From a virus, in the IMG/VR virus record IMGVR_UViG_3300035180_000343, positions 32,001-96,000 of that record: a stretch of DNA of 64,000 nt. One strand, written 5' to 3'. The position numbers and the translations under genes were made by a program. The notes below the pieces were generated by a model that ran no database searches, was not told the DNA's origin, and worked only from the letters and a program-made list of their open reading frames with translations. Each line of letters opens with the position of its first letter. Position 1 is the stretch's first letter. Below are positions 45,127 through 62,216 of the stretch, piece after piece.

Positions 45127-45226
45127 ACTTTTCTCCTGGCTAATGATTTTGTTTTATTTATCAGATGGCACCGTAAAACCTTGGCCTTTATGTCAGGGAT
45201 ATAAGGCGTGTTTTTAACTTGTTCCA

Positions 45227-45255
45227 AGTATATATTAGTAAAACCATTTTGTCAA
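45227..45255 (-). promoter_or_regulatory. Outward-facing sigma70 promoter in the element left end (TTGACA-17-TATACT)
   Basis: Same arrangement at 53753-53781 (TACACT) and 60858-60886 (TATACT). Confidence 0.7.
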
Positions 45256-45295
45256 GTGCTTTGACAATAATGAGTTCGTCAAAGTTGAACAATTA

Positions 45296-45303
45296 TATAA
45301 ATA
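45296..45303 (+). promoter_or_regulatory. T4 late-promoter consensus TATAAATA just upstream of tnpB
   Basis: Exact in all three copies (also 53821-53828 and 60926-60933), 5-7 nt before the ATG. Confidence 0.65.
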
Positions 45304-45310
45304 TACGTAT

Positions 45311-46579
45311 ATGAAACAATTACTCGCATACAAATATCGGATTTATCCAACAAAGGATCAAGAAATCCTCTTGAGCAAAACCTTTGGTTGTAAGAGAGTA
45401 ATCTTCAACCATTACCTAGAAGTGCAGCAAACCAGATACAAAAACAAAGAACCTCGGTTAAGCAATTTCGACATCAACAAAGACATCACCAAGTTAAAAG
45501 ATGAAAAGGAATGGTTGAGGGAAGTCGATATAAACGCACTACAAGCGGCGGCGGGAGATTTGTCTGTTGCATATGACAATTTCTTCAAGTCGGTTACTGG
45601 TAAGAGAAAAGGTCCGAAGATTTCTCCACCGAAGTTCAAGAACAAAAATTCTAGACAGTCGTATAGGACTCGTAATGTTCGCGTCAATGAAGACGGTTCT
45701 TTACAGATACCAAAACTAAAGTCAGTCAAAGCAGCCATCCACAGAGAAATTCCAGAAGGATCGATAATTAAATCGGCGACCATATCAAGGAACCCAGATG
45801 GAAGATATTACGCATCAATATTAGTTGAAACAGAAGTAGCATTGCAGCCAATGACAGGTAAAGAAGTCGGTTGCGATTTAGGTCTCAAGGATTTGTTAAT
45901 CACTTCAAGTGGTATAAAATTCAAAAGACCCGATGATTTACCAAACATTGCGAGAACCAAGCAATTGTTGAAGTTGAAGCAAAGACAGTTCGCAAGAACC
46001 GTTAAAGGTAGCAAAAATCACGAATCGTTAAGACTTCAAGTAGCACGACTTTATTCGAAGAGCACAAGACAAAGAAATGAATATTATCATCTAGTTAGCA
46101 GATACTTGGTTGATAATTACGATTCTATCTACGTCGAAGACTTGTCGAGTAAAAATATGTTACAGAATAGGAAGTTGAGTCGAGCGATTCATGAAGTGGC
46201 TTGGACAACTTTGTCCAATATGATTTCATATAAATCATCTTGGGCTGGTAAAACTTATCATCAAATCGATCGTTGGTATCCAAGTAGCAAGACCTGTAGC
46301 TCTTGTGGTCATAAGCTCGAGAAACTTGATCTTGGCACTAGAGAATGGACTTGTCCGTCTTGTGGAACTCATCATGATCGTGATTTAAATGCTGCTATGA
46401 ACATTCTTCATGTCGGTCAAGCCGACTGCTACGGAGAAGAAATGAAGTCGCAAGCAACAGGCGACTTGGGACTAGAGATCCCAGTGGCCCTACAGAAAAT
46501 GACCATTAAAATCGAGAGATCCAACGCTACGTTGGTTGGTCATGGGAGTGGGCAAGCTACGTCCTTTAGGGCGTGGTAG
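45311..46579 (+). CDS. tnpB: RNA-guided endonuclease TnpB, copy 1
   Basis: HTH YKYRIYPT..FG; RuvC GCDLGLK / VEDL / DRDLNAA all intact; CSSC..CPSC Zn finger. Confidence 0.96.
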   Translation: MKQLLAYKYRIYPTKDQEILLSKTFGCKRVIFNHYLEVQQTRYKNKEPRLSNFDINKDITKLKDEKEWLREVDINALQAAAGDLSVAYDNFFKSVTGKRKGPKISPPKFKNKNSRQSYRTRNVRVNEDGSLQIPKLKSVKAAIHREIPEGSIIKSATISRNPDGRYYASILVETEVALQPMTGKEVGCDLGLKDLLITSSGIKFKRPDDLPNIARTKQLLKLKQRQFARTVKGSKNHESLRLQVARLYSKSTRQRNEYYHLVSRYLVDNYDSIYVEDLSSKNMLQNRKLSRAIHEVAWTTLSNMISYKSSWAGKTYHQIDRWYPSSKTCSSCGHKLEKLDLGTREWTCPSCGTHHDRDLNAAMNILHVGQADCYGEEMKSQATGDLGLEIPVALQKMTIKIERSNATLVGHGSGQATSFRAW

Positions 46580-46604
46580 TTGACCATAAATTGACATTTT
46601 GATT
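46430..46604 (+). ncRNA. Putative omegaRNA (scaffold in the tnpB 3' end, guide from the right flank); equivalents in copies 2 and 3
   Basis: Conserved 3' segment in all copies ending at gtagttgac; established TnpB architecture; 5' boundary approximate. Confidence 0.6.
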
Positions 46605-46615
46605 CTCCTATATCT

Positions 46616-47443
46616 TCAATGTTTTTTCGGTTTAGCAGTTTCCATCCGCTTAAGAGTTGTTTGCCACAACTTTCTAAACTTCCCACGAACAACTCCACCT
46701 CTAGCAAACGACAAGATTTGCTTTGACGCAAACCGATTCGACGATGACGTAGATTTCGATTTATCCCAAATTTGCTTCAATGATTTATATGGCAACCCAG
46801 TTATTTTTACAAGTTTTGCTACTTCTGGATTTGTTCGTCCTTCTTCAATGAAATCTCCGTCTATCGAATCTTGAACCATCTCGTCAATTAAATCCGCAAG
46901 CGCCAATTCATTTTCTTCTAGAATTGTCCGGAGTTCTTCAAAGAGTTTCTTAGCAGATGTAGCAGTCGCCGTCGACGGACACATCGACTTAAATAACTGG
47001 AAATTATTTGTTTTGACTGCTTCTCTTGATTTGGTTGCGCTAACGTCTTCGTCTGTTCTTGGGGACTGGATGATTTCAACTTTTGTAAATCCTTTGTCAG
47101 TGGCCCACTTTTCAAGACTCTTAGCATAACCACCAGTAGCTTGATCTTCACCAACAACTATATATAATTGGGTATATCCGAGTTCTTTTAACGCTGTTAC
47201 CATTTTAAATGGATCTCGGATTTTATCGTTTTCAATGACTGTTATGTTTTTAAAGAATGTCTTGACCCATTTGACCTTGGAATTGAAATCCAATGGATTT
47301 TTCTTGTTATCTTGTGTATGCGAAAGACAAAGTATTGGATCCCCGTTGACTTTCTTTGCAGTCTCGACCGCAAGATTTACAAGTTTTTCGTGTCCGGATG
47401 TCGGGGGATTAAACCTCCCAAAGATTGCAACTGCTGTTTTCAT
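46616..47443 (-). CDS. HIGH-family nucleotidyl/cytidylyltransferase
   Basis: AIFGRFNPPTSGHEKL, LSHTQD.KKNPL, VVGEDQ, SATK.R. Confidence 0.88.
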   Translation of the reverse strand: MKTAVAIFGRFNPPTSGHEKLVNLAVETAKKVNGDPILCLSHTQDNKKNPLDFNSKVKWVKTFFKNITVIENDKIRDPFKMVTALKELGYTQLYIVVGEDQATGGYAKSLEKWATDKGFTKVEIIQSPRTDEDVSATKSREAVKTNNFQLFKSMCPSTATATSAKKLFEELRTILEENELALADLIDEMVQDSIDGDFIEEGRTNPEVAKLVKITGLPYKSLKQIWDKSKSTSSSNRFASKQILSFARGGVVRGKFRKLWQTTLKRMETAKPKKH

Positions 47444-47943
47444 TGTTCCAGTTCCGAGTAAAGAAGTCTAGGTCTAAACGAAAAACTATCGACCCCAACA
47501 TCTAAGAGTTTCCTATGTGTTTTGGTATTTGTGCCATGGCAATGACCATGCAAAAACAAATCAATTTCATCCCCAATCTTTTCAATATCTTTTGGATCGA
47601 TTGGACGATGTGACATGAAGAATGTGTTACCACCAACTTCTATTGTTGCACAATCCTGAATCTCAACCCATTCTAAATCAAGTGTTTTCTTCTTATCATG
47701 GTTCCCGATAATAAGAACCTTTTGTCCGTTCAATCTAGAAAATATTTCGGAATTCAGTTCGGTAGAAATTCCACATGAAAAATCCCCTAGATGAAACACC
47801 AGATCATCTGGTGATATCGATTCATTCCATCGTTGGATCATAGTTTCGTTCATTTCTTCCGATGTTTCGAATGGACGATTGCAGTATTTAATGATATTCC
47901 GATGCCCAAAATGTGTATCCGACGTAACCCAAATTTTACTCAT
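47440..47943 (-). CDS. Calcineurin-like metallophosphoesterase
   Basis: TSDTHFGH, HLGDF, GNHD, LHGHCH, DVGVD. Confidence 0.92.
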   Translation of the reverse strand: MSKIWVTSDTHFGHRNIIKYCNRPFETSEEMNETMIQRWNESISPDDLVFHLGDFSCGISTELNSEIFSRLNGQKVLIIGNHDKKKTLDLEWVEIQDCATIEVGGNTFFMSHRPIDPKDIEKIGDEIDLFLHGHCHGTNTKTHRKLLDVGVDSFSFRPRLLYSELEQ

Positions 47944-47944
47944 C

Positions 47945-48844
47945 TCAAACCTTTCTTTTAGAGTCTTTAAACTCTTTCGTCGTTACTTTAAGAGATTTGC
48001 CATTGATCGCAAGGACAATCCCTTCAATTTCTTTTCCAAACTTATCTTTTCCGTCGATATCAGCATTTAGAATCAACGTCGCAAGGTCTTCTTTTACTTT
48101 ATTGACAATAGCAAGCAAATTCTCTTTTTGAATTTTGTCGGCTGCTTTTCTACTTTTCAAAATTTCTATATGAGAATCATCAAAATTGACTAGAGGATCA
48201 ATAGTAGCATTTATATCCAATGAGTCTATTTTCATTGAAGTATCGGCAAATTTAATTTTATCATTGCTAAACTTGAACAAATTTTTCTTTATAGACTCTT
48301 GTTGATCTTTTGGCAACTGTTCGCCAGTTGAAGCAACAACAAAATCAATTGGAAAAATAGTCATCAAACTTCCGAGTTTTGTCTTGTCATATTTTATAGT
48401 GACAAACGTAATCCCAGTGTCGTCTTCGGTTGCCATTGGGTTATAAAATATCTCACATATAAGTTTAACGTCATTTGGGATTGCTGTCAAGAAGTCTGCC
48501 GATTTAAAAATGTCAAACATATCGTCATAGTGTTGAGCACGGATAACAATTTCGTCCTTTGCTCCTTTTGCTTTTGCATGAGTCGAGAATGCTTTTGGTT
48601 CAAATATCGGACCAGTTCTTGACCCCTCAACAAACACTTTTCCGTCTTTGTTTTTTCCAATACGAAATCCTAGTCCGTCTACTTTCAATGATACCGGAAT
48701 ATCTTTTAAAACCCCACCTAATTCAGATTTAAACGATTTTACGAGGGAGATGAATTCTTCCGGTTTCATCGCTTGTAGATGTTCCATTGTAGTTCGTTTT
48801 GTCTGGACTACGTCTTCATAAATGAACTGTCGAAATGTTTTCAA
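47945..48844 (-). CDS. ATP-dependent ligase-like (covalent nucleotidyltransferase) protein with CTS-like start
   Basis: Motif I SLKVDG, motif III ICEIF, motif IV EGIV, motif V LKV; MKTFRQFIYE start. Confidence 0.65.
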   Translation of the reverse strand: MKTFRQFIYEDVVQTKRTTMEHLQAMKPEEFISLVKSFKSELGGVLKDIPVSLKVDGLGFRIGKNKDGKVFVEGSRTGPIFEPKAFSTHAKAKGAKDEIVIRAQHYDDMFDIFKSADFLTAIPNDVKLICEIFYNPMATEDDTGITFVTIKYDKTKLGSLMTIFPIDFVVASTGEQLPKDQQESIKKNLFKFSNDKIKFADTSMKIDSLDINATIDPLVNFDDSHIEILKSRKAADKIQKENLLAIVNKVKEDLATLILNADIDGKDKFGKEIEGIVLAINGKSLKVTTKEFKDSKRKV

Positions 48845-50088
48845 AGTTGAAACCCCATCTTGTCTGCGGCGCGGCCATCGAGTGACCCTCTAACCTGATA
48901 CGATTTTGACCTAAGATATACTCTTGAGGACGACATATTATTCAATAAATCTTTTCCAGTTAAAACTTCCCATTTTGGGATACCAGTTGCGCCAATGTCT
49001 AGTTTTACATAAACTAAATCGGATGACAATGCATCTGAAATAAATGGTCTAAAATCTAACCTTGGGTCGGTTTTCGAATAAGTCTCAATCAATTGTCCAA
49101 CTACTTGACTCAGCCCAATTGTTGTAATGCCCTTATTCCAAAAATCAATCTTGGATGGGTCAACTGATTCAATCCACTTCATTGCCGCATACGGAATGAG
49201 TTCATCTTTTCTCGCGTTCTTTTGAACCCACGAAGAATCAAATGTCTTGAACTCTTTGAACTTCATTTCTTTCAGATATTCCCCAGCTTTTATAGGACCA
49301 ACCCAAGCAGTATTTGACTCGATCTCCCGAATTATATTCGTCATTGGATCATTAAACCACTTCGACTTCTTATCTAACATTGAAAGAAGATCGGAACCCT
49401 TGACGGTATTTGTATGTTTTGCTGCAGTCTTTGCAGATACATTTATTACGCCAGTTGACTCAATAATATAGTCGAGCAATGGTTCGTTTGGTCTTTTTGG
49501 AAATTCAACGATTGAATATTTGTTGGCAACCTTTCCGATTGTTGCAAACATATCATTTTCAACAATTGCAATCGGTCCGAGACATTCTCCAAAGTCCTTC
49601 ATCACTGATGCGATGTCAATATTCTTTCTATGTTCTTTGAAAAAATCAACCAACGTGGAATTTGGAATTTTGCCCAATTGATGAGAAATTAACATTGAAC
49701 AATAAGACCCAGTCATTCCTAATTTTAACTCGTTTGTATTTCCTTGTAAAGTCTCGACATATTTTGGATATTTCAGGGGTTGAGTTAGACCAAACTTATC
49801 GGGTTTCAGAACATTTTGAGGAAGACGAGTTGACGTCACTTCGATTTTCATAACAATGAATTCGGTTGGGCTTATTTCGATATATCCTTTGGATGATTTC
49901 AAAATGCCGGACCCGTTTGTTTTTCTCTTCCATTTTGGGTTGTGATCTAGAAGTGTGGTGATTGCTCCCGCTCGTTGTGCATTCGGCAAGAATATATGAT
50001 AAACCGTCTTCTTAGGTCTTCCTTGTGTCAGAACAGAAATATCAGACGCACCAGTGATTTCTTTTAGCTCTTCAACAAAATCTTTCAC
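48841..50088 (-). CDS. Putative PD-(D/E)xK-like endonuclease
   Basis: ECLG..FP..NEPLLDYII..NVSAK pattern. Confidence 0.45.
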   Translation of the reverse strand: MKDFVEELKEITGASDISVLTQGRPKKTVYHIFLPNAQRAGAITTLLDHNPKWKRKTNGSGILKSSKGYIEISPTEFIVMKIEVTSTRLPQNVLKPDKFGLTQPLKYPKYVETLQGNTNELKLGMTGSYCSMLISHQLGKIPNSTLVDFFKEHRKNIDIASVMKDFGECLGPIAIVENDMFATIGKVANKYSIVEFPKRPNEPLLDYIIESTGVINVSAKTAAKHTNTVKGSDLLSMLDKKSKWFNDPMTNIIREIESNTAWVGPIKAGEYLKEMKFKEFKTFDSSWVQKNARKDELIPYAAMKWIESVDPSKIDFWNKGITTIGLSQVVGQLIETYSKTDPRLDFRPFISDALSSDLVYVKLDIGATGIPKWEVLTGKDLLNNMSSSRVYLRSKSYQVRGSLDGRAADKMGFQL

Positions 50089-51209
50089 TTGTACCTCGCG
50101 TAGAAGGATTTCTTCATTTCGTCGAAGTCTTTAACGGATCCACCGAGTTTCTTAGTTAGAACGCTAATCATCGCATTCTTCTCATCGAGATCCTTGTCTG
50201 GATCTCCACGGTATAGTCCCTGTGCCGAATCTCCCCAGAGTGTATAAGCAAACCCAGTAACAATCGGCTTCCATGTGGACTTCGGAAGATTTTTTTGAAT
50301 GAGGTCGATAAGTCCCGTGAAACTACTAAATTGTTTGAGCTCGTCCGAAGATGGAGAATGTCCAAACCATTCTTTAAATACGAAATCTAGATCAGTGTTG
50401 CCAGGAGATTCTGTTGTCGACATTTCTCTATAATGTGGAATGTCGTTTGTCTTTATTTGTTTTCCAGAATCATCTTTGATTGGGGAAAGTTTGGTTCGTA
50501 GCCCACCAGTAACACTGAATGCGCGCTCACTTGAAAGGATTTCTTTATCTTTCCCTCTAGACGTCTTTGCTGGAATCAAAACCTTCTTAAGATTTGGAGC
50601 TTCCATTGCGCGCAGAAGATATTTGTGAGCAACTCCCTTAATACCTTGCTCCATATCTTCCCATGCTGAGGAATGACTAAACTGTGCCCATGGCGTCGGT
50701 TTGCCAGTTTTGTCGAATTCTACCAACTCCATATCAATCTGAATGTTGGTATCATATGGAACAAGTGTCCATAGAGTGATAAATTGTCCAGCCGATTTCT
50801 TATATCCAACGAATGTCAACGGGCCAAATGTTTCACCTTCGATACCAGAATTCAAGAATTTTTCAACAAACGGTTCAAGGTTGCCATCGACTTGAGTGTC
50901 AATATCTCCAACCGACTGTTTCACTTTAGAAAACTTTTCGTCTTCAATTTTCTTCAAGTCAAAGAAATGAAATGCAGAACCAGAAAGAAATTCTTTAGAC
51001 TTGAAAAGAGAATCGTTCCACAAATAAAGACCAGTCGACTTCGAAAATGCTTTATTGATTTCAGACAATCCCTTATCAATAACAGGGACGATTTCTTTTC
51101 TTGATAGTTTTGTCAGGTCAATTCGTTGTGCTTCGGCGTCTCCCAAACGAACATTTCCACCTTCTGAAACGAACTTTCTAAAACTTTTTAACACGAGATT
51201 TCCACCCAA
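50085..51209 (-). CDS. Pol-beta-superfamily nucleotidyltransferase with CTS-like segment
   Basis: LSGSA..GDIDTQVD, IQIDMEL; LKSFRKFVSE near the start; CATAAATA late-like motif upstream. Confidence 0.65.
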   Translation of the reverse strand: MGGNLVLKSFRKFVSEGGNVRLGDAEAQRIDLTKLSRKEIVPVIDKGLSEINKAFSKSTGLYLWNDSLFKSKEFLSGSAFHFFDLKKIEDEKFSKVKQSVGDIDTQVDGNLEPFVEKFLNSGIEGETFGPLTFVGYKKSAGQFITLWTLVPYDTNIQIDMELVEFDKTGKPTPWAQFSHSSAWEDMEQGIKGVAHKYLLRAMEAPNLKKVLIPAKTSRGKDKEILSSERAFSVTGGLRTKLSPIKDDSGKQIKTNDIPHYREMSTTESPGNTDLDFVFKEWFGHSPSSDELKQFSSFTGLIDLIQKNLPKSTWKPIVTGFAYTLWGDSAQGLYRGDPDKDLDEKNAMISVLTKKLGGSVKDFDEMKKSFYARYK

Positions 51210-51227
51210 AGTAATTTCCTTATCGTG

Positions 51228-51980
51228 TTATTTATGGACATTTCGATACTTGACAATCATATCGATCATAACTTGTTCGTCTTGGTTTGGATTCTCACAC
51301 TTTAAATAGGAATCCATTAAATCATTTGCAAACTTGGATGTGCTTGGATCGACTTTATAAACTTCGTCAATTCCATTCAACTTCATTACGAGAAACCGTT
51401 TGACGCATTGTTTACATTCGCCACATGGGACTCCATCATTATGCCAACAACTTGTAGTTTCTTTCAGTTCTGGAATGATTTCTTTTCCGAATGTCTCGAT
51501 AGCCCATTTTACGGTGTCAACCTTTGACATCTTCTCTTCGACGAACGGAAACCTAACTTTACATCCATTGATGAATGGAGATAGCACATATGACAATACT
51601 TCCGAAGTCATTGCCCTAAACTTTTCATTCTTGTCGGTTGCTTGTTCGTTGTCCTCGTCAAACAATGTCCCCATCCATACTTCATCTGGAAGTTCTTGGC
51701 TTGCGGCCAGAGTAGCAAATACAAGATTCCTTCCAGGAATATAGATAGCAGATGCAAACGGATCAGACTTCTTGGACACGGGACGAATACCAGCTGGAGA
51801 TAACCAATCAATAGTTCGAATCTCAACATATTCTGGAAGTCGGTCAATCTCAACCTCTTCGGAATCTGCTCCATGTGCATAGTAAATACACTTTACATCC
51901 GCATCTGGATAATTCTTCTCGGCATATTTCTTCATCAGGAAACTGTCCAACCCACCACTATACAAAATCACAATCTTCAT
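51228..51980 (-). CDS. queC: QueC-like 7-cyano-7-deazaguanine synthase (PP-loop ATPase)
   Basis: YSGGLDS, IPGRNLVF, TSCW..PCGECKQC Zn site. Confidence 0.85.
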   Translation of the reverse strand: MKIVILYSGGLDSFLMKKYAEKNYPDADVKCIYYAHGADSEEVEIDRLPEYVEIRTIDWLSPAGIRPVSKKSDPFASAIYIPGRNLVFATLAASQELPDEVWMGTLFDEDNEQATDKNEKFRAMTSEVLSYVLSPFINGCKVRFPFVEEKMSKVDTVKWAIETFGKEIIPELKETTSCWHNDGVPCGECKQCVKRFLVMKLNGIDEVYKVDPSTSKFANDLMDSYLKCENPNQDEQVMIDMIVKYRNVHK

Positions 51981-51999
51981 TTGGAATCCTTAAAAATAA

Positions 52000-52386
52000 T
52001 CATTTGTGCCTTACGTTCTCTTTAGTAACCAAATCGTGCACAATTCTAACAACTTTTACGTCAGGACACAACCTTTCAATTTCGTCGGCCTGGATTGGGT
52101 CGTCTTCGTAGTGAATTACTATTTTCATGTCAAAAATAGAGTTCAACAGATTGATGGTTTTTCCTTTATGAGTCCCAGACGACAATCTACTCTTTTTGTC
52201 GAATGGAAGTGGATTGAAGAAGGGGTAATTCATAATCCCCCTACTCTTCAACATCGCTATCGTTTCTGGAATTTCTTCAAACGACCTTCCAGTGATAATG
52301 ACATCGTTTTCTCTTGGAGTTAATCCAGGATATTCTCCCATGAAAATAACTCCGTCAATGTCATAACTCGCAATAGGATCATTCAT
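52000..52386 (-). CDS. HAD-superfamily phosphatase
   Basis: YDIDGVI, IITGRS, K, HYEDD motifs I-IV; overlaps the MIPS stop. Confidence 0.85.
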   Translation of the reverse strand: MNDPIASYDIDGVIFMGEYPGLTPRENDVIITGRSFEEIPETIAMLKSRGIMNYPFFNPLPFDKKSRLSSGTHKGKTINLLNSIFDMKIVIHYEDDPIQADEIERLCPDVKVVRIVHDLVTKENVRHK

Positions 52387-53665: not shown

Positions 53666-53687
53666 ACAATTTCCTTCATTATATCAG

Positions 53688-55111
53688 TTAGTGCCATAAA
53701 ATCTTGGTCTTTAGGCCAAAAATATAAGGCGTGGTTTTCAACTTGTTTTAATAGTGTATATTAGTGGAATGATTTTGTCAAGTGCTTTGACAAAATTATT
53801 TCGTCAAAGTTGAACAATTATATAAATACGTAATATGAAACAATTTATCTCGTACAAATATCGGATTTATCCAACAGAAGACCAACAAGTTCTTCTGAGT
53901 AAAACCTTTGGCTGTAAACGAGCGATTTTCAACCATTACCTTGAAATACAGGAAACTCGATTTAAAAACAAAGAACCTCGGTTAAGCAATTTCGACATCA
54001 ATAAAGACATTACCAAACTGAAGAAAGAAAAGGAATGGCTATATGAAGTTGATAATGCTGCATTACAATCTTCTGCTGAAGACTTAACAAAAGCATACGA
54101 CAATTTCTTCAAGTCGGTTACTGGTAAGAGAAAAGGTCCGAAGATATCTCCACCGAAGTTCAAGAACAAGAATTCGCGCCAATCATATAGAACTCACTAC
54201 GTTCACGTTAATGAAGACGGAACACTGCATATTCCGAAACTAAAGTCAGTCAAAGCAGCCATCCACAGAGAAATTCCAGAAGGATCGAAAATTAAATCGG
54301 CGACCGTTTCAAGAAATCCTGACGGAAGATATTATGCATCAATTTTAGTAGAAACAGAAGTAACATCAAGGCCGATGACCTATCGGGAAGTCGGTTGCGA
54401 TTTAGGTCTCAAGGATTTGTTAATTACCTCAAGTGGTATAAAATTCAAGAGGCCAGATGAATTGCCGAACATTGCGAGAACCAAGCAATTATTGAAGTTG
54501 AAGCAAAAACAGTTCGCGAGAACCGTTAAAGGTAGCAAAAATCACGAATCTTTAAGACTCCAAGTAGCACGGCTTTATTCGAAGAGCACAAGACAAAGAA
54601 ACGAATATTATCATCTAGTTAGTAGATACTTGGTTGATAATTACGATTCTATCTACGTTGAAGACTTGTCGAGTAAAAATATGTTACAAAACAGGAAGTT
54701 GAGTCGAGCAATCCACGAAGTGGCGTGGTCAACCTTGTCTGGGATGATCCAGTACAAATCATCTTGGGCTGGTAAAACTTATCATCGGATTGATCGTTGG
54801 TATCCAAGTAGCAAGACTTGCTCTTCTTGTGGTCATAAACTTGAAACACTTGACCTCGGCACCAGAGAATGGACTTGTCCGAACTGTGGAACTCATCATG
54901 ACCGTGATTTAAATGCTGCTATGAACATTCTTCATGTCGGACAATCCGACTGTTATGGAGAAGCAATAAAGTCGCATGCAATAGGCGACTTGGGACTAGA
55001 AATCCCATCGGCCCTACAGAAAATGACCATTAAAATCGAGAGATCCAATGCTAATGTGTTGGTTGGTCATGGGAGTGGGCAAGCCGCGTCCTTTAGGAAG
55101 CGGTAGTTGAC
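53688..55111 (+). mobile_element. tnpB-only IS200/IS605-family element, copy 2
   Basis: Shared left and right ends; sits between dpdA-like and ino1. Confidence 0.92.
53835..55106 (+). CDS. tnpB: RNA-guided endonuclease TnpB, copy 2
   Basis: Intact RuvC D-E-D and Zn finger; close paralog of copy 1. Confidence 0.96.
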   Translation: MKQFISYKYRIYPTEDQQVLLSKTFGCKRAIFNHYLEIQETRFKNKEPRLSNFDINKDITKLKKEKEWLYEVDNAALQSSAEDLTKAYDNFFKSVTGKRKGPKISPPKFKNKNSRQSYRTHYVHVNEDGTLHIPKLKSVKAAIHREIPEGSKIKSATVSRNPDGRYYASILVETEVTSRPMTYREVGCDLGLKDLLITSSGIKFKRPDELPNIARTKQLLKLKQKQFARTVKGSKNHESLRLQVARLYSKSTRQRNEYYHLVSRYLVDNYDSIYVEDLSSKNMLQNRKLSRAIHEVAWSTLSGMIQYKSSWAGKTYHRIDRWYPSSKTCSSCGHKLETLDLGTREWTCPNCGTHHDRDLNAAMNILHVGQSDCYGEAIKSHAIGDLGLEIPSALQKMTIKIERSNANVLVGHGSGQAASFRKR

Positions 55112-55116
55112 CAAGC

Positions 55117-56388
55117 TCAAAAGAAACTACTGATGTCGACTTGCTTTTCTTTCACTGCAACTGATTTCATTGACGATTTAAAAATGTTCGACCATTCGTC
55201 AAAATCTGTTTTTGTATCTACATCTTGAAACGAACGATACATCGAAAACTTTTTCATGTCAACAACATCCTCAAGTCTTGGAGCAGACAAGAATGTTTTT
55301 ATAGCTTCCAACAATGCCAAACTCGATGTAACAGCAAATGCCGTCCATACTCTAACAATCTCATTCTTATCTTTTCCAGCAGCAATATGTTTTTCGTTGC
55401 TGCTGTTGATTACATTGTGTAGGTGCTTTGGGCTATGGACTCCATCCAACTGGTCTATCTCTTTGATTTTGTTGAATATTTTTTCATATGCTACTTGGTC
55501 ATAATGCCGTCCAAATGAAAATTGATTTTGGTCTGGACCGTCCGCAACATAAAAACAACCTTTTGTGATTCCACTTGTATGAGATGTCGAATCGAAACTT
55601 AAAATAACATCTGAATTTCTACCATCTCTAAAGCATACCAAGTTTGGTACGAGCCGACGCATTGATCCAACACCCAAAAGGTGAATCTGTTTGTTTTTTA
55701 GATTATATTTTCGAAGTATTTGGAAACTAGCGAATGTTCGAACAAAGGATTCATATTCTCCATTTCCAAGTGAGGTTGAACCAAGAGAAATTCCACCTAA
55801 GTAGTCATGATAATCTGGGGGAAGTTCGTTCAGAATAATATCCGCCCATTGTAAAAAAGTGTCGACATCATTTCCCTGAACAATCATCAATGGTTTGCTA
55901 ACTGTTCCGAATTCTCTAAAGGCGTCGATTTGCTCTTTCAGATTAGCTGCCGAATCCTTCGCACACTTTACGAAAATATCCTTATCGAAGAATCTGTCAC
56001 CAGTGCTACCAATCTTTGAGGAAGCAGTTGGGGTATAAAGAGGAATCTCGTCAAACGACATCGCAATTGTTGAGTTCTTTGCTTGAGACTCATATATTTT
56101 TCGCTTGATGCCAGAGTCAATCTTCGACCCACGAGTGATAATTTGAAGACCGCCAGAATCAGCATGAATATCACAAATTACATCTCGTAGATATTTGTTC
56201 AGTACATCTCCTCCCGATTTTTCCGTAAATGCGTTATATAACATTCCAAGAGAATATCCTTTTGCCTTTACCTTTTTGAATAAATTGCGAAGGAACTCGG
56301 TATTCTCTTCTGTATAAGACGAATTCATCAAGAGTTTTGGATATCCAACTCCAGACATAATGTAGTGGAACCGATCAACATCAACCAT
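55117..56388 (-). CDS. dpdA: DpdA/TGT-like base-exchange transglycosylase
   Basis: ADSGGLQI, MSFDEIP, IVQGN, IHLLGVG and SFDSTSH are TGT-fold motifs; adjacent to folE. Confidence 0.75.
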   Translation of the reverse strand: MVDVDRFHYIMSGVGYPKLLMNSSYTEENTEFLRNLFKKVKAKGYSLGMLYNAFTEKSGGDVLNKYLRDVICDIHADSGGLQIITRGSKIDSGIKRKIYESQAKNSTIAMSFDEIPLYTPTASSKIGSTGDRFFDKDIFVKCAKDSAANLKEQIDAFREFGTVSKPLMIVQGNDVDTFLQWADIILNELPPDYHDYLGGISLGSTSLGNGEYESFVRTFASFQILRKYNLKNKQIHLLGVGSMRRLVPNLVCFRDGRNSDVILSFDSTSHTSGITKGCFYVADGPDQNQFSFGRHYDQVAYEKIFNKIKEIDQLDGVHSPKHLHNVINSSNEKHIAAGKDKNEIVRVWTAFAVTSSLALLEAIKTFLSAPRLEDVVDMKKFSMYRSFQDVDTKTDFDEWSNIFKSSMKSVAVKEKQVDISSFF

Positions 56389-57065
56389 TATTTTTGCCTT
56401 GCTAAAGAAAGAAATTCTTGTCGAGCACTTGGATTATCTCTAAACGCACCCGACAAGAAACTTGTCGATGTTGTTGCTCCAGTTGACTCAACACCTCTCC
56501 ATGAAACGCAAAAATGTTCACATTCCATTACAACGGCGACATCGTCTGTCTCACAAATAAATTTTACTGTTTCACCAATCTGTTGGGTCTGAAGTTCTTG
56601 GAGTGTCGGGCGGCGAGAAAAATATTCAACAATTCGTGGGAGTTTAGATAGTCCCAATGCAATATTCTTGGGCTTATAAGCAATTGTGCATGTTCCAACA
56701 ATCGGAACAATATGATGAGAGCAGCTACTTTTCACTGGAATATTATGCTCGATAACAATCTCATCATAATGGTGGTCATTTGGAAACCCAGTACACTTGG
56801 GGAAATTTTCGGGTTTCAGACCCCACATTGTTTCTTTAACTAACATCTTCGCAACTCGTTTTGGAGTGTCAACATGGGATGGGTTTGTCATATCCATACC
56901 AATAGTCGTCAACATTTCCAAAACATTCTGTTGAATTTTCTCAATTTTTTCATCGTCTGGAACATTTAACATTGCTTCATCTACCGCACTTTCGAGGTGC
57001 AAAGATTTTAAATGTTGAAGAACCTTCAATCCAAGAACTGGATCACATTTCGTTGATTGTAGCAT
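56388..57065 (-). CDS. folE: GTP cyclohydrolase I
   Basis: TPKRVAKM, SSCSHHIVP, GLSKLPRIV..RRP.LQE, CEHFCV..RGV, T.TS. Confidence 0.95.
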   Translation of the reverse strand: MLQSTKCDPVLGLKVLQHLKSLHLESAVDEAMLNVPDDEKIEKIQQNVLEMLTTIGMDMTNPSHVDTPKRVAKMLVKETMWGLKPENFPKCTGFPNDHHYDEIVIEHNIPVKSSCSHHIVPIVGTCTIAYKPKNIALGLSKLPRIVEYFSRRPTLQELQTQQIGETVKFICETDDVAVVMECEHFCVSWRGVESTGATTSTSFLSGAFRDNPSARQEFLSLARQK

Positions 57066-57094
57066 TCGAGTTTCCTTTTTGTTTTCGAATTTAA

Positions 57095-57123
57095 ATTGTA
57101 ACTTAAACTTGAGGAATTGTCAA
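57095..57123 (-). promoter_or_regulatory. Sigma70-type promoter TTGACA-17-TACAAT heading the folE operon
   Basis: Spacing counted directly. Confidence 0.75.
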
Positions 57124-57149
57124 GTCCTCATACCTACTTATGCGAGGTT

Positions 57150-58985
57150 TTACACCTCAATTGATGAGAAATCTTTCTTCTTTTTCAATGTGCTAAATCC
57201 ACTTGGGCCACTTTTTTCTTCTTTTTCGTCTGGACTTCCCTTCTCGAGTATTCTACCGTTAGCAGGTTGATCGACGTTGTAGAGAAGCATCTTTGCCCGA
57301 TCAACTCCGACAACGAATCTCTTGTTCATCACTGGATCGGAAAACCGATTCTTCAACTGCTTAAACATAATCATGTTCTGTTCATCAAGTGCTTCGGTTC
57401 TAATGATAGCAAATATTGCATCTGCAATCATTGCTGTTCCGAACGAATCTGAGATTTCGGTGATTTCCGAATCGGAATTATTGTTACCAGATCTGGAGAA
57501 CTGTGTACTACTTATAATCGGAACATTAAATTCAATTGCCAACCCACGCAATTCTTCTGCAATCGATTTTACCATACTATAACTATTAACATTATTCCCT
57601 GCTTTATATCGAACAGACGACATAATATTAACATAATCAACCATTATAATATCTGGAACAAATTCTTGTTTCAATTGAAGGTCATTTAGAAGTGCTCGAA
57701 AATGTGCAACATTTGCGCCAGCAGTTGGATATTCTTTAACCACCATCTTTCCAGTTATTGTTGGCAGAACCTCGGACATTCGTTGAACATATTTTTCCTT
57801 TGACCACTTCTCAAGCTCGCCAAGATTCGTTTGCAAAAGATTTGCGTCAATACGTTCGAGGATGCGTTCTTCAGCCATCTCTAGTGTGATATAAAGAACA
57901 TTTTTCCCAGACTTGATATAAGACGATGCGAGGCTACATTTTACCATGCTTTTGCCAGCATTGGTATTATGTGAGCTAACATTTTCTGTCCAGTATCTAT
58001 GATTAGGATGGTCAATTACAACGTCAACAATTGGAATTCGATTCCCCGTCTTTTGTATTACGTATTCCGTTCGATATCCAGATTTTGTTAGAATATTTAG
58101 ATGGGGAATATTATTCGCGTCAAGATCAAGCAGTTCTTTTGCAGAAAACCACCCAGATACAGTTTCGAATAAATGATTCTCATTACACCTAATCAAGTGA
58201 CCGTCTATTTGGAGGATATATTCGTCCCATATCCCCTTATCAACATATTCCGCAATCGGAACCCATCCATCGGGCGAGTCAATTTCAACATCGGAATTAT
58301 TCATCAACTGTTGAATTCTACCAACCGTTGAGTTCAACTCGTGCCAATGTTGCGTAGACTTTTGTCGAGTTCTAATCTTAACTTTAGTATCTGGATGAAC
58401 ACAACCCGCTATTAGCAACGTCAATGTTTTCTTAGGCAATCCACCACCGGTAATGGTATTGAGCATGTCGATATCAAACGGAATTCGAACCGATTCCGCA
58501 TGCAACTTCTCAAACCGTTCTTCAACGTCAGTTAATGACTGCCCAACCGATTTATTAAAAGATACTGATAATGCATCTTTTAGAATATCCGGAAGTTGAT
58601 CTCGGCTTTGTTCTTCGTCGTTAATAATTTCAATACATTTTAGAACAGAATTATAAACACTTCGTTCTTTAATCCAGGCTTCGGCGTGTTCGACTAACCA
58701 TGCCTGGCTTGGCTCCTTAATTCTCGATGATGCAACCTCAGCAAGGACGCACTCCGCTTGTGTTACAGAATCTTCTGAAAGTTTATTGTTCGTTCGTAAA
58801 GAAACAATAATCTCATCTTTTGACGGCAGAACATTGTATTTAGAAACAAACTCGTCCACTGCTTTGAAAACAGTTTTTTTGCTTGTTTCTGTGAAATATT
58901 CCTCCTTCAAAAAAGGAAGAACATGCTTAGCAAAGTCTGGGTTAAAGAAGAGACCATGTAAAACTTGCTCTTCGATTCCAGACAT
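57150..58985 (-). CDS. gp41: Replicative helicase gp41 (DnaB-like) with intein
   Basis: IPFDI..LN..TGGG..K.L..G..GKS, YITLEM.E..I..RID, VDYVNI, AEELRGLA, LKNR. Confidence 0.95.
   Translation of the reverse strand: MSGIEEQVLHGLFFNPDFAKHVLPFLKEEYFTETSKKTVFKAVDEFVSKYNVLPSKDEIIVSLRTNNKLSEDSVTQAECVLAEVASSRIKEPSQAWLVEHAEAWIKERSVYNSVLKCIEIINDEEQSRDQLPDILKDALSVSFNKSVGQSLTDVEERFEKLHAESVRIPFDIDMLNTITGGGLPKKTLTLLIAGCVHPDTKVKIRTRQKSTQHWHELNSTVGRIQQLMNNSDVEIDSPDGWVPIAEYVDKGIWDEYILQIDGHLIRCNENHLFETVSGWFSAKELLDLDANNIPHLNILTKSGYRTEYVIQKTGNRIPIVDVVIDHPNHRYWTENVSSHNTNAGKSMVKCSLASSYIKSGKNVLYITLEMAEERILERIDANLLQTNLGELEKWSKEKYVQRMSEVLPTITGKMVVKEYPTAGANVAHFRALLNDLQLKQEFVPDIIMVDYVNIMSSVRYKAGNNVNSYSMVKSIAEELRGLAIEFNVPIISSTQFSRSGNNNSDSEITEISDSFGTAMIADAIFAIIRTEALDEQNMIMFKQLKNRFSDPVMNKRFVVGVDRAKMLLYNVDQPANGRILEKGSPDEKEEKSGPSGFSTLKKKKDFSSIEV
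57966..58403 (-). mobile_element. Contiguous 146-aa mini-intein in the gp41 Walker A
   Basis: CVHPDT start, RCNENH block B, HPNHRYW..SSHN end, +1 Thr; no endonuclease domain. Confidence 0.92.
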
Positions 58986-59311
58986 TATTCTTCCTCATTG
59001 ATGAATTTAGTGGATTCAAGCAGATGTTTGAGTACGATATCATAAATGATATCTTGAATTTTCAATTTAATATCGCCTTCCAATTCAACATCTTCTTCGT
59101 CCAAATTAAATGTATTGTATTCAAAACTCAAGACACCGTCTTTCAACTCAAATGTTTTAGAGTTAAGTTTGACCAAGACTTTCTCGTCCTCTAACGCAAT
59201 TAAGATATCTTGATCCAACGAAGAAATTGCATACTTAACGTTTGCTAATTTATCATCAACTGCCTTTATAAGTTCGTCGATGGAGGTAATGTTTTCATAA
59301 GAGTTACTCAT
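58985..59311 (-). CDS. Hypothetical protein between uvsX and gp41 (gp40 position)
   Basis: ATGA-type coupling to uvsX; acidic. Confidence 0.6.
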   Translation of the reverse strand: MSNSYENITSIDELIKAVDDKLANVKYAISSLDQDILIALEDEKVLVKLNSKTFELKDGVLSFEYNTFNLDEEDVELEGDIKLKIQDIIYDIVLKHLLESTKFINEEE

Positions 59312-60368
59312 TCGTTGTCTCCTCTGGTTGGGCCTCATCTGTATCTACTTCTCCTGCACCATAACAAAACAATGGTTTCATTTTCTCATTGATGAGATCC
59401 AATATTTCCTTTGTAAAATACTTCTCGGGGTCTCGATTTATTTGCGTTCCAAACACCTTTCTACCATCTGGGAGAACAAGCCGAGTCGAATCCTTCTTGA
59501 AGACTCCACATTTTTCCGCAATATCAACTAAACCATAGTATCGTTGTAGGCCGGTGTCGTGCCGAATCAAGACGGAAACCTCTGCTCCAGTCTTAGTCAA
59601 CCTAGATTTATAAAGATTCGCGCGAATATTCAATCCAACCAGTTGGCCATCTTCTTTCTCTTTGCGCTTGTTCAGGATAACAATTGTCGATGCCGCATAC
59701 TTGACACCACTTCCACCACCTATCTCGGCTGGACTATACATATCAAAAACGGCGTAGACATGGTTGGTCAAAATCATCGGGACTTTTGCTTGTGCCAGCT
59801 TCAGTGTTAAAATCCTGAATGCTCCCTTAATAAGCTGCGTCCGAGTCATGTCTTTTACATCTTTTCCCTCTGTAGTATCCTTTACCTCTTTATTAGTCGA
59901 CAACATGCCAAGAGAATCTAGAACAAACAACATTCGTGGCCGAGATTCCTTCTTTGCTTCGATATATTTGTCAAGAATCCTAACTGCCTGAGTCCGAAAG
60001 TCTTCAACTGTTGCAACTGGAATAATGAATATGCGCTTTGAATCAATCCCACGACTTTCAATATCTTCCTTTGTAATTGCACCTTCTGATTCAAAATAAA
60101 AGCAAGCAGAATCGGGATGTGCTTCCAAGAAGTTTTTTGTTCCAGTCAAGACCGCAAAAGATTTTCCCGAGGCTTCCTCACCAGCTAAAGCAGTCACTTT
60201 CCCAACTGGATATCCTTTGTAAATATCCCCAGAAATCAAAGCATTGAGCGCATATGAACCAGAGTCGATATATTCCGTTATATCCCCACTCATTACACCG
60301 TCACATACTGCTTGTGCCATGTTGTTCTTTGTTTCTTTTACCAAACTATTCCATAGTGCGTCACTCAT
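59304..60368 (-). CDS. uvsX: RecA-like recombinase UvsX
   Basis: IDSGSYALNALISG, AGEEASGKS, FESEGA, DSLGMLST.KE, GGGSG.KYAAS. Confidence 0.95.
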   Translation of the reverse strand: MSDALWNSLVKETKNNMAQAVCDGVMSGDITEYIDSGSYALNALISGDIYKGYPVGKVTALAGEEASGKSFAVLTGTKNFLEAHPDSACFYFESEGAITKEDIESRGIDSKRIFIIPVATVEDFRTQAVRILDKYIEAKKESRPRMLFVLDSLGMLSTNKEVKDTTEGKDVKDMTRTQLIKGAFRILTLKLAQAKVPMILTNHVYAVFDMYSPAEIGGGSGVKYAASTIVILNKRKEKEDGQLVGLNIRANLYKSRLTKTGAEVSVLIRHDTGLQRYYGLVDIAEKCGVFKKDSTRLVLPDGRKVFGTQINRDPEKYFTKEILDLINEKMKPLFCYGAGEVDTDEAQPEETTNE

Positions 60369-60394
60369 AGTTACATCCTTCTTGTAAAATTTGA

Positions 60395-60423
60395 AGTATA
60401 ACGGATTCTTTTCGAAAAGTCAA
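60395..60423 (-). promoter_or_regulatory. Sigma70-type promoter TTGACT-17-TATACT upstream of uvsX
   Basis: Spacing counted directly. Confidence 0.7.
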
Positions 60424-60431
60424 GAGACAAA

Positions 60432-60462
60432 AACAAGAATGAGGCCGAAGCCTCATTCTGTT
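60432..60462 (-). terminator. Intrinsic terminator with UUCG loop
   Basis: - strand agaatgaggc-TTCG-gcctcattct followed by tgttttt. Confidence 0.85.
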
Positions 60463-60477
60463 TGGTTGGATTGTTGG

Positions 60478-60762
60478 TTAGCCGACAACGTAAGCATTAA
60501 CTTTTCCGTCAGTATAACCTGTAACTGTTGCCATCATTTTCGGATATTTGTCCGTTAGAGATAACTTGGCAATTGGAGCCGCCGGAGTTGTCGAGCATGT
60601 TCCAAGAGGTAACCAATTCACTCCAGTAACAGATCCGTAGAAGGTTACCGTGCTTGTTCCAACATTCTCGACGACAAACGTACCATCCATTTCTAATAGT
60701 GCTTCAATTACTGCCGAATCGTTCAACGTCGAAGAGTTTTCAAAAAACTTTCTAACTTTCAT
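60478..60762 (-). CDS. Small late protein with CTS-like start
   Basis: MKVRKFFE; ATAAATA motif upstream. Confidence 0.6.
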   Translation of the reverse strand: MKVRKFFENSSTLNDSAVIEALLEMDGTFVVENVGTSTVTFYGSVTGVNWLPLGTCSTTPAAPIAKLSLTDKYPKMMATVTGYTDGKVNAYVVG

Positions 60763-60792
60763 GATTTATTCCTTCAAAACCATATTTATCAG

Positions 60793-62214
60793 GTGGCGCC
60801 GTAAAACCTTGGCCTTCAGGCCAGGGATATAAGGCGTGCTTTTTAACTCGTTCCAATAGTATATGTTAGTGAAACCATTTTGTCAAGTGCTTCGACGAAA
60901 TAATTTCATCAGAATTAAATAATTGTATAAATACGTATATGAAACAATTACTCGCATTCAAATATCGGATTTACCCGACAAAGGATCAAGAAATCCTCTT
61001 GAGTAAAACCTTTGGCTGCAAGCGAGCAATCTTCAATCATTACCTAGAAGTGCAGCAAACCAGATACAAAAACAAAGAACCTCGGTTAAGCAATTTCGAC
61101 ATCAACAAAGACATCACCAAACTAAAAGATGAGAAGGAATGGTTAAGGGAAGTCGATTCGGTTGCTCTACAATCTTCTGCTGAAGATCTAACAAAAGCAT
61201 ATGACAATTTCTTCAAATCCGTAACTGGTAAAAGAAAAGGTCCAAAGATTTCGCCACCGAAGTTCAAGAACAAGAATTCACGTCAGTCGTATCGAACTCG
61301 TAATGTTCGAATTAATGAAGACGGTTCGTTACAAATACCGAAACTAAAGTCAGTCAAAGCAGCCATCCATAGAGAAATCCCAGAAGGATCGGTGATCAAG
61401 ACAACGACCATTTCGAGGAATCCAGATGGAAGATATTATGCATCAATTTTAGTAGAAACAGAAGTAGCACTGCAACCAATGACCCATAGGGAAGTCGGTT
61501 GCGACCTCGGGTTAAAGGATTTGCTTATCACCTCAAGAGGTATAAAATTTAAAAGACCAGATGAATTACCGAACATTGCGAGAACCAAGCAATTGTTAAA
61601 AGCAAAGCAAAAACAGTTCGCAAGAACTGAAAAGAGTAGCAAAAATCACGAATCTTTAAGACTTCAAGTGGCACGTTTATATTCAAAGGTCACCCGACAA
61701 AGAAATGAATATTATCATCTAGTTAGTAGATACTTGGTTGATAACTATGACTCCATCTATGTCGAAGACTTGTCGAGTAAGAACATGCTACAAAACAGGA
61801 AGTTGAGTCGAGCGATTCATGAGGTAGCTTGGTCAACCTTATCTGGGATGATCCAATATAAATCATCTTGGGCTGGTAAAACTTATCATCGGATTGATCG
61901 TTGGTACCCAAGCTCAAAGACCTGTTCTAGTTGTGGTCATAAACTTGAAACACTTGACCTCGGCACCAGAGAATGGACTTGTCCAGATTGCGGAACTCAT
62001 CATGATCGTGATTTGAATGCTGCTATGAACATTCTTCAGGTCGGTCAAGCCGACTGCTACGGAGAAGCAATAAAGTCGCATGCAATAGGCGACTTGGGAG
62101 AAATCCCATCGGCCCTACAGAAAATGATCATTAAAATCGAGAGATCCAATGTTGATACGTTGGTTGGTCATGGGAGTGGGCAAGCCGCGTCCTATAAAGG
62201 ACGCGGTAGTTGAC
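60793..62214 (+). mobile_element. tnpB-only IS200/IS605-family element, copy 3
   Basis: Left end gtggcgccgtaaaaccttggccttcaggccagggatataaggcg; right end gcggtagttgac. Confidence 0.92.
60939..62213 (+). CDS. tnpB: RNA-guided endonuclease TnpB, copy 3
   Basis: Intact RuvC D-E-D and Zn finger. Confidence 0.96.
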   Translation: MKQLLAFKYRIYPTKDQEILLSKTFGCKRAIFNHYLEVQQTRYKNKEPRLSNFDINKDITKLKDEKEWLREVDSVALQSSAEDLTKAYDNFFKSVTGKRKGPKISPPKFKNKNSRQSYRTRNVRINEDGSLQIPKLKSVKAAIHREIPEGSVIKTTTISRNPDGRYYASILVETEVALQPMTHREVGCDLGLKDLLITSRGIKFKRPDELPNIARTKQLLKAKQKQFARTEKSSKNHESLRLQVARLYSKVTRQRNEYYHLVSRYLVDNYDSIYVEDLSSKNMLQNRKLSRAIHEVAWSTLSGMIQYKSSWAGKTYHRIDRWYPSSKTCSSCGHKLETLDLGTREWTCPDCGTHHDRDLNAAMNILQVGQADCYGEAIKSHAIGDLGEIPSALQKMIIKIERSNVDTLVGHGSGQAASYKGRGS

Positions 62215-62216
62215 GC

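Follow-up and report, generated by a model that had tools for sequence, protein, structure and literature searches.

Cas12 descends from TnpB, a nuclease whose natural role, the retention of a transposon by RNA-guided homing, has to our knowledge been demonstrated in bacterial chromosomes only. Can such a nuclease also serve elements that live in a virulent phage, and how would it be expressed there? The question is raised by three tnpB elements in a 64,000-nt stretch of viral DNA (the window), bases 32001-96000 of the 129,321-bp IMG/VR virus record IMGVR_UViG_3300035180_000343, whose source is a T4-like myovirus. We consider it fairly probable that they are IS605-type copies in a phage-restricted lineage, with a late-expressed TnpB–omegaRNA that homes between co-infecting phages.

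Three tnpB-only elements in a T4-like phage

The elements and their genes lie as follows (window coordinates).

45162..46584, plus strand: element copy 1, tnpB-only, IS605-type, 1423 nt; left end after TTTAT, right end ...GGTAGTTGAC
45311..46579, plus strand: tnpB of copy 1, 422 aa; RuvC residues D189/E276/D358 and CxxC...CxxC zinc motif intact
53685..55111, plus strand: element copy 2, 1427 nt; left flank TATAT at 53680-53684
53835..55106, plus strand: tnpB of copy 2, 423 aa; Pfam domains
60790..62214, plus strand: element copy 3, 1425 nt, the best preserved; empty alleles L121/L122, strong left-end hairpin
60939..62213, plus strand: tnpB of copy 3, 424 aa; Pfam domains

The three tnpB open reading frames (422-424 aa) show 88-90% identity to copy 1, and all three proteins match HTH_OrfB_IS605, OrfB_IS605 and Cas12f1-like_TNB above the Pfam cut-offs. 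Copy 1 TnpB also matches the ISDra2 TnpB structures (E 3e-67). All 13 relatives compared keep D189, E276 and D358 and also the four cysteines of the zinc ribbon; the first three residues align with the GxDxG, VEDL and HDRD motifs of a TnpB-like nuclease of solved structure. No match to Y1_Tnp, the domain of tnpA, was detected in the window or in the whole 129-kb record, which is 71% complete (CheckV). The sequence-only reading of the window, which had described three intact tnpB-only elements and no tnpA, is borne out by these searches; the copies are a non-autonomous, tnpB-only form of IS200/IS605 (IS605-type) that has lost most of tnpA.

A common right end, ...GGTAGTTGAC, closes all copies, and their sequences are unrelated beyond GTTGAC. 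The right-end hairpins fold in every copy (z -2.1 to -6.8). Only copy 3 has a strong left-end hairpin (-10.8 kcal/mol); in copies 1 and 2 this hairpin is decayed and no better than shuffled sequences.

A T4-type late-promoter-like box precedes tnpB

A T4 late promoter consists of an 8-bp box located about one helical turn ahead of the start site (PMC2988020). Boxes of this type stand before each tnpB:

45296..45303, plus strand: TATAAATA box of copy 1, 7 nt before the tnpB ATG
53821..53828, plus strand: TATAAATA box of copy 2, 6 nt before the ATG
60926..60933, plus strand: TATAAATA box of copy 3, 5 nt before the ATG

An 8-bp TATAAATA-type box without a -35 element is the T4-type late-promoter form, and it is exact in the three copies. 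None of them has a purine-rich Shine-Dalgarno sequence before tnpB, the neighbouring phage genes having AGGAGA or AAGGAA, and no sigma70-like promoter facing tnpB was found in the left end of the element. The coordinates thus confirm an exact motif 5-7 nt before each ATG with no Shine-Dalgarno sequence, as had been noticed beforehand.

The three copies are homologous, and motifs common to them do not represent three independent events; independent support comes from the distinct relatives that keep the motif. All 25 distinct upstream regions of the phage clade (relatives 54-90% identical) contain either CTAAATA or NATAAATA, with T, C, A or G first in the latter. Box and ATG are separated by 5 nt in 18/25, by 4-7 nt in 6/25 and by 10 nt in 1/25. 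When these 25 regions were aligned, information content was maximal at -12 to -6 and the positions around the box varied, so that the persistence of the motif despite divergence, first remarked in copy 3, extends to the relatives. A TGTCAAA lying 11-12 nt ahead of the box is also conserved, and three relatives (L017, L018 and L020) have a second TATAAATA ~45 nt upstream.

The phage uses similar boxes at its own genes. In a genome that is 91% coding, 10/14 occurrences of TATAAATA (p 3e-8) and 27/44 of NATAAATA (p 1e-17) are intergenic, with boxes 4-52 nt ahead of the tail sheath gene, a baseplate wedge gene and other plus-strand phage genes. The variation in these distances favours a promoter over a ribosome signal. 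Four phage genes (record 3885, 11206, 20594 (+) and 128914 (-)) have the same layout as tnpB, NATAAATA-N4-6-ATG without Shine-Dalgarno sequence. They encode a gp2-like DNA end protector, a 560-aa HNH homing endonuclease (here CATAAATA-N4-ATG), a DNA helicase (PHROG 'DNA helicase'), which is taken to be UvsW-like, and the small terminase subunit; genes that are late in T4 are among them. This shared arrangement suggests that leaderless late mRNAs are made regularly by this phage and its group. Moreover, the tail-sheath promoter segment (record 8568-8600; L130 4769-4801) equals the tnpB upstream segment at 29/32 positions (TTTCGTCAAAATCGAACGATTATATAAATAC), a likeness that suggests either capture of the promoter or gene conversion between element and phage.

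Two T4 proteins of late transcription have homologues in the record, the late sigma factor gp55 (record 127166-127567, E 3e-17) and the sliding clamp gp45 (record 122819-123478, E 9e-19). In T4 the last A of the late-promoter box lies at about -6, transcription starting ~6 nt after the box; with this spacing, tnpB transcription is predicted to begin at the A of the AUG or at an adjacent base. We infer that the tnpB mRNA is leaderless and late. The proposal of a late promoter and of adaptation to the phage, originally made from the window alone, gains comparative evidence from the fixed box distance across the clade, from the gp55 and gp45 homologues and from the identical layout at the phage's own genes.

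Relatives of the elements lie on phage-like contigs

No relative was found in one representative genome each of 185,579 bacterial and archaeal species, scanned with the single protein and with a 13-sequence alignment. IMG/VR contained 21 loci at 62-90% identity, and the best 120 of 6,204 metagenomic homologues (E <= 0.001) were 74-100% identical. In the 50%-clustered library, identity falls from 81% to 54% and 50%, and after that to 46% or less. Every relative context inspected, down to 50% identity, was a phage-like contig, with either T4-type UvsX, DnaB and PolB neighbourhoods or 63-572 kb of small unannotated genes with traces of HNH, Lar or terminase genes.

Annotated TnpB genes as such exist in 432 phage records and in thousands of plasmids. 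The closest TnpB of a phage record shows 42.7% identity, and a megablast of the phage collection with copy 1 gave no match. Four bacterial plasmid TnpBs (40-42% identity) are without the box layout, two of them having a normal Shine-Dalgarno sequence, and one homologue, P0282, is in a bacterial context, adjoining a GGDEF/EAL gene. As to whether bacterial relatives carry the motif, a point on which the sequence-only reading had hinged, there is no close bacterial relative in these searches and the four plasmid genes lack the arrangement.

Some relatives are full-length. A divergent 132-aa Y1 tnpA is located directly upstream of tnpB in L012, L013, L018, L019, L020 and L027, and L162/L163 carry tnpA too, so the ancestor was a full IS605-type element. 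Several independent deletion derivatives exist among the relatives. In the tnpA–tnpB intergenic region (~50-75 nt; L012 2553-3003, L018, L020 and L027), NATAAATA boxes face both genes, which implies late expression of the transposase as well.

The insertion target is the complement of the late promoter

Where the elements insert was determined from the flanks and from alleles that lack the element.

45157..45161, plus strand: target-adjacent motif (TAM)/target TTTAT of copy 1; on the minus strand it gives, with the first base of the element, GATAAATA (45155-45162)
60785..60789, plus strand: TTTAT, the TAM/target of copy 3; minus-strand reading GATAAATA (60783-60790), in the empty allele TATAAATA
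Copy 3 empty allele, plus strand: TATTTAT|ATTTAGCC...
Copy 3 filled allele, plus strand: TATTTAT|[CAG...GTTGAC]|GCTTAGCC...

A search for empty alleles, suggested at the outset, succeeded for copy 3. Two 96% identical contigs (L121/L122) join window 62217 to 60789 with 2 nt between, a clean empty site. By comparison with this allele the element begins right behind TTTAT, its first three bases are CAG and the target is not duplicated; copy 3 was inserted in the IS200/IS605 mode. The left-flank pattern (T/A)TA(T/C)CAG reported earlier therefore holds in part: the flank proper is TTTAT (TATAT at copy 2), while its CAG belongs to the element. Of the TTAT- or YCAG-like TAM expected there, the YCAG form is not borne out, the target being TTTAT, extended (T/G)ATTTAT. 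Logan contigs from four runs contain the copy 3 joint alongside filled contigs, so that both alleles are present together in single samples; for run X1, the joint (60789->62216, one letter between) has a depth of 79, versus about 250-275 for the backbone. No empty allele was found for copy 1, neither flanking gene having yielded related loci.

Among the left flanks of 21 distinct sites, 15/21 are TTTAT and the rest NTTAT, TTCAT or TATAT. An A occupies position -6 in 15/16 of the T-rich, TTTAT-type flanks (binomial p 2e-7), and TA occupies -7/-6 in 10/21 flanks (binomial p 7e-6). Read on the other strand, the extended target (T/G)ATTTAT is ATAAAT(A/C), the core of the late promoter. The empty allele of copy 3 has a perfect TATAAATA 20 nt before the ATG of a minus-strand 94-aa gene (60478-60762); the insertion splits T|ATAAATA, and the terminal CAG of the element converts the box to GATAAATA, still 20 nt before that gene. 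At copy 1, GATAAATA lies 28 nt before an 84-aa gene (44872-45126). The same GATAAATA is found ahead of other phage genes.

This target accounts for the antisense, gene-boundary positions of the elements: an insertion into the complement of a late promoter points away from the promoter's gene. The flanking genes are on the minus strand and all three copies are antisense to them; between the right end (...GTTGAC) and the stop codon of the neighbouring gene lie 5 nt at copy 2, 2 nt at copy 3 and 31 nt at copy 1. Both the opposite orientation and the abutting stop codons had been observed in the sequence-only reading and are confirmed here, the orientation as a consequence of the target, with no lineage rule behind it: L028-L033 and a mini-element described below are co-oriented with their neighbours. 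More widely, the minus strand of the phage carries ribonucleotide reductase, a DnaB-like helicase, a UvsX-like recombinase and GTP cyclohydrolase, and the plus strand baseplate wedge proteins and the large terminase subunit (44% identity to its cyanomyovirus counterparts). Near-identical DNA is present in microbial-mat and sediment metagenomes.

omegaRNA scaffolds, guides and elements without tnpB

The last ~150 nt of the element form a conserved structure with 36 consensus pairs, 22 of them with compensatory changes (23-sequence alignment). We read this as the omegaRNA scaffold, spanning the 3' end of tnpB and the right end. A covariance model built from the alignment detects exactly five scaffolds in the record (152-163 bits), three with tnpB and two orphans. 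Guide lengths below were taken from known TnpB systems.

46435..46582, plus strand: omegaRNA scaffold of copy 1, covariance model, 163 bits
54959..55109, plus strand: omegaRNA scaffold of copy 2, covariance model, 160 bits
62063..62209, plus strand: omegaRNA scaffold of copy 3, covariance model, 152 bits
46585..46604, plus strand: predicted guide of copy 1, the flank directly 3' of the right end
55112..55131, plus strand: predicted guide of copy 2, overlapping the 3' end of the minus-strand gene 55117-56388
62215..62234, plus strand: predicted guide of copy 3, overlapping the stop codon and 3' end of the regulator gene 62217-62513
Record 108431-108715 (L004 about 1494-1777), minus strand, outside the window: mini-element A, 285 nt, TnpB-less; left end behind CTTAT, TATAAATA box, small hairpin and scaffold
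Record 119509-119700 (L005), minus strand, outside the window: orphan omegaRNA scaffold B; deletion junction in common with mini-element A

The predicted guide of copy 3 matches the empty alleles directly behind TATTTAT, with 3-4 mismatches that include positions 1-2. No second site for any guide was found behind a TAM in the record.

The left end of mini-element A is complete. A gene of 357 aa in the same orientation follows after 28 nt, so that the predicted guide of the mini-element covers the ribosome-binding site of that gene. Scaffold B is without the left-end hairpin, keeps part of the left-end interior and has its right end mutated to GTTAAC; it is probably immobile. Such mini-elements would be extra guide cassettes for TnpB acting in trans.

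Minis like A also occur in L140, L145 and L009, and in reversed orientation in L041. A further element relic, an inverted left-end fragment, TATTTAT|CAGATGGCGTCATAAAACCTTAGCCTT (L004 1800-1836), lies where a 109-aa open reading frame ends, about 50 nt upstream of mini-element A. Two IMG/VR contigs hold derivatives that arose by independent deletions: in L138 the middle of tnpB is gone and its N- and C-terminal parts remain behind GATAAATA, and L146 combines a left end and a remnant of tnpA with two CATAAATA boxes and the scaffold. Two phage tRNA genes are located near mini-element A (L004 2380-2538, minus strand; Rfam RF00005, 72 + 50 bits).

A proposed homing cycle and its alternatives

In the cycle that we propose, a gp55-type RNA polymerase would start at the NATAAATA box late in infection and produce a leaderless or nearly leaderless tnpB mRNA, and the transcript would continue through the right end into the flank. 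From its 3' part, as is known for other TnpBs (PMC10278001), TnpB would make the omegaRNA, with the flank as guide. The complex would then cut only where TTTAT directly abuts the flank, in empty alleles of co-infecting relatives or in excised sites. The phage recombination machinery (UvsX homologue, DNA helicase) would repair the break from the filled copy and so copy the element in, as in transposon homing (PMC10055086) and in the intronless homing of T4 (reviewed in PMC13565253). New insertions would need TnpA in trans; each would enter the late promoter of a gene on the opposite strand, divide it as T|ATAAATA and still provide a usable GATAAATA. For copies 1-3, the steps from RNA processing to cleavage and homing are proposed here on the strength of their sequences, and the homing idea fits the anatomy: an intact RuvC site, a covarying omegaRNA, a TAM and guide match and coexisting alleles.

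Several points weigh against this cycle. The start site and the timing of tnpB transcription are sequence-based predictions, and the gp55-type start offset is a prediction carried over from T4. Current transposition is doubtful, given the decayed left-end hairpins of copies 1 and 2 and the lack of tnpA in a record that is 71% complete. The mismatches between the copy 3 guide and the empty alleles fall on the TAM-proximal positions 1-2, or on position 1 in the X1 and X4 contigs, and for that reason the known empty alleles may be resistant to cutting rather than targets; the differences at positions 1-2 could mark resistant survivors or reflect simple divergence. At copy 2 the alternative allele, L042 (spacer 3372-3476), holds an unrelated 105-nt hairpin-rich spacer and is not a clean empty site. 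What seems to be a 7-deazaguanine DNA-modification operon beside copy 2 (GTP cyclohydrolase) might affect cleavage. Finally, the lineage has so far been found on phage-like contigs only, as judged by contig gene content and by searches that need shared short peptides.

The most conventional alternative is that these are ordinary host-derived IS200/IS605 insertions, TATAAATA being AT-rich sequence or a weak sigma70 -10 box without any adaptation to the phage. TnpB is common enough in phage records (432) and in plasmids (thousands), T4-like Campylobacter phages with several tnpB-only insertion sequences were described in 2010 (PMC2853527), and the three copies share their motifs by homology. Yet a host origin would leave unexplained why representative genomes of 185,579 species hold no relative, why relatives down to 50% identity all lie on phage-like contigs, and why the box is kept in 25/25 diverged relatives while its neighbours vary; in addition, NATAAATA variants are without the -7 T of a sigma70 -10 box and the phage's own genes share the layout. 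We regard this explanation as very unlikely. A somewhat different objection accepts the conservation of the box and attributes it to translation or regulation, for instance A-rich ribosome loading or a protein site, with tnpB transcribed from elsewhere with a longer leader and neither leaderless nor necessarily late. Here the predicted nature of the start site matters, and the conserved TGTCAAA 11-12 nt ahead of the box hints at a larger signal, as does the second TATAAATA ~45 nt upstream in L017, L018 and L020. The enrichment of the same 8-mer before structural genes at a variable 4-52 nt, the presence of a gp55 homologue and the lack of a sigma70-like promoter facing tnpB in the left end speak for a promoter instead, and make this account unlikely.

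It may also be asked whether the phage has domesticated TnpB, for instance to act as a regulator or to attack competing phages under RNA guidance, so that the copies are no longer mobile selfish elements. The missing tnpA, the decayed left-end hairpins of copies 1 and 2, the L028-L033 group (no visible left end, co-oriented with phage genes) and the guides added by orphan omegaRNAs all agree with such a change of role. It is nonetheless quite unlikely in view of the sharp ends, of the intact hairpin and clean presence/absence polymorphism of copy 3, and of the guides, each of which is its own element's flank and matches nowhere else behind a TAM, which argues for maintenance of the element rather than for chosen targets. 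Late-expressed TnpB–omegaRNA homing between co-infecting phages thus remains the reading that we prefer. A broader synthesis, tentative and rather doubtful as a whole, would have IS605/TnpB elements co-evolved with T4-like and jumbo phages: the late promoter would be at once expression signal and insertion target, split and rebuilt on insertion, the nuclease mRNA leaderless and the omegaRNA-only satellites served by TnpB in trans, the whole amounting to a multi-guide, RNA-programmed gene drive with marker exclusion between co-infecting phages.

As for the copy 2 locus, its intergenic site is a hot spot for cassette exchange, with replacement and not clean insertion. The 105-nt spacer of L042 holds its own TTGACA-17-TACAAT. 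The possibility that the spacer is a decayed element was rejected, since its left-end similarity (29) does not stand out from that of shuffled sequences (mean 26, max 45). L041 3128-3485 has the same spacer plus a reversed, left-end-truncated mini-element. Rfam contains no family for the omegaRNA or for the L041/L042 spacer.

Relation to known systems

The elements share their domain architecture and RuvC triad with ISDra2, IS608/IS605 and the G. stearothermophilus elements (PMC10055086). As in ISDra2/IS608/IS605-type elements, the omegaRNA lies at the tnpB 3' end and right end, subterminal hairpins are present (at the right end of every copy, and in strong form at the left end of copy 3), insertion takes place 3' of a pentanucleotide without duplication, the target motif would be the TAM and the right flank the guide; a divergent tnpA is present in full-length relatives. 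They differ in that the lineage is found on phage-like contigs only and tnpA is deleted in these copies, that tnpB has no Shine-Dalgarno sequence and stands 5-7 nt behind a T4-type box, and that the target is the complement of that box. Homing here would occur between co-infecting phage genomes, not between sister chromosomes.

A second comparison is with Seg, Mob and I-Tev, the free-standing homing endonucleases of T4-like phages (intronless homing, PMC155333 as cited in PMC13565253). Both systems place a nuclease gene between conserved phage genes, polymorphic among close relatives; late expression, as predicted here, and phage recombination repair would spread it in mixed infections. Unlike those enzymes, TnpB would recognize its target through an RNA guide and TAM rather than through protein, self and non-self would be set by the insertion, and there are transposon ends and non-autonomous minis.

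A further precedent is ISCaje1-4 of the Campylobacter phages CP220/CPt10 (PMC2853527), several tnpB-only IS200/IS605 copies in a virulent T4-like myovirus, at differing sites in related phages. That report predates the discovery of TnpB function and is silent on promoters, target motif and guide RNA. Among derivatives of IS200/IS605 that resemble miniature inverted-repeat or palindrome-associated transposable elements (MITE/PATE-like), mini-element A is comparable in keeping left and right ends without tnpB, and mini-element B in keeping the right end and part of the left-end interior only; they differ in that the retained part is the omegaRNA scaffold, usually with TATAAATA upstream. It is already known that TnpB genes are common in phage genomes and that tnpB-only insertion sequences occur in T4-like Campylobacter phages (PMC2853527), and a 2026 review names coinfected phages as conceivable targets of transposon homing (PMC13565253). 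A full-text literature search found no paper linking TnpB/IS605 elements to phage late promoters in the way described here.

The lineage appears to live in virulent phages, to borrow their late-gene signal and to target the complement of that signal. If this is true, it is a natural case of RNA-guided homing between viral genomes and permits a direct comparison with the protein-guided Seg, Mob and Tev endonucleases of T4. The filled and empty alleles of copy 3 make the homing hypothesis testable, and the lineage offers compact TnpB–omegaRNA pairs with a defined AT-rich TAM, together with natural omegaRNA-only cassettes.

An outward sigma70-like site in the tnpA remnant

Each element also contains a sigma70-like site that points leftward, out of the element.

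45227..45255, minus strand: outward TTGACA-17-TATACT of copy 1, 11/12 consensus positions
53753..53781, minus strand: outward TTGACA-17-TACACT of copy 2, motif match
60858..60886, minus strand: outward TTGACA-17-TATACT of copy 3, motif match

The leftward TTGACA-17-TA(T/C)ACT that had been noted in every copy is thus present, and the record as a whole has 33 sites at >= 11/12 sigma70 consensus positions versus 5-11 in shuffled sequences. The accompanying idea that it is the relic promoter of tnpA is refuted by full-length relatives, in which it is the final ~50 nt of tnpA (...ASTETIAKYIAEQG*) that align with the two hexamers; these are a tnpA 3' coding remnant and do not belong to the tnpA–tnpB intergenic region, the tnpA promoter region being at the opposite end, beside the tnpB start. 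More distant relatives are without the outward site. The site may restore early transcription of downstream genes; at the copy 2 locus the L042 allele, which lacks the element, has a TTGACA-17-TACAAT of its own.

A captured early promoter of the phage was rejected as the source of the site, since the phage early consensus, TTGACATTCTTTCGGACTTCTTATATAAT, differs. At least a dozen close copies of this extended consensus lie on the minus strand (window 25300-63465 and beyond, including 41388, 42410 and 63465), in most cases 20-40 nt ahead of a gene of that strand. An imperfect palindrome, TTGTCAAGTGCTTTGACAA (window 45240-45260, and at the same place in copies 2 and 3), encloses the -35 hexamer of the outward site; it is limited to the closest relatives and could be a protein binding site.

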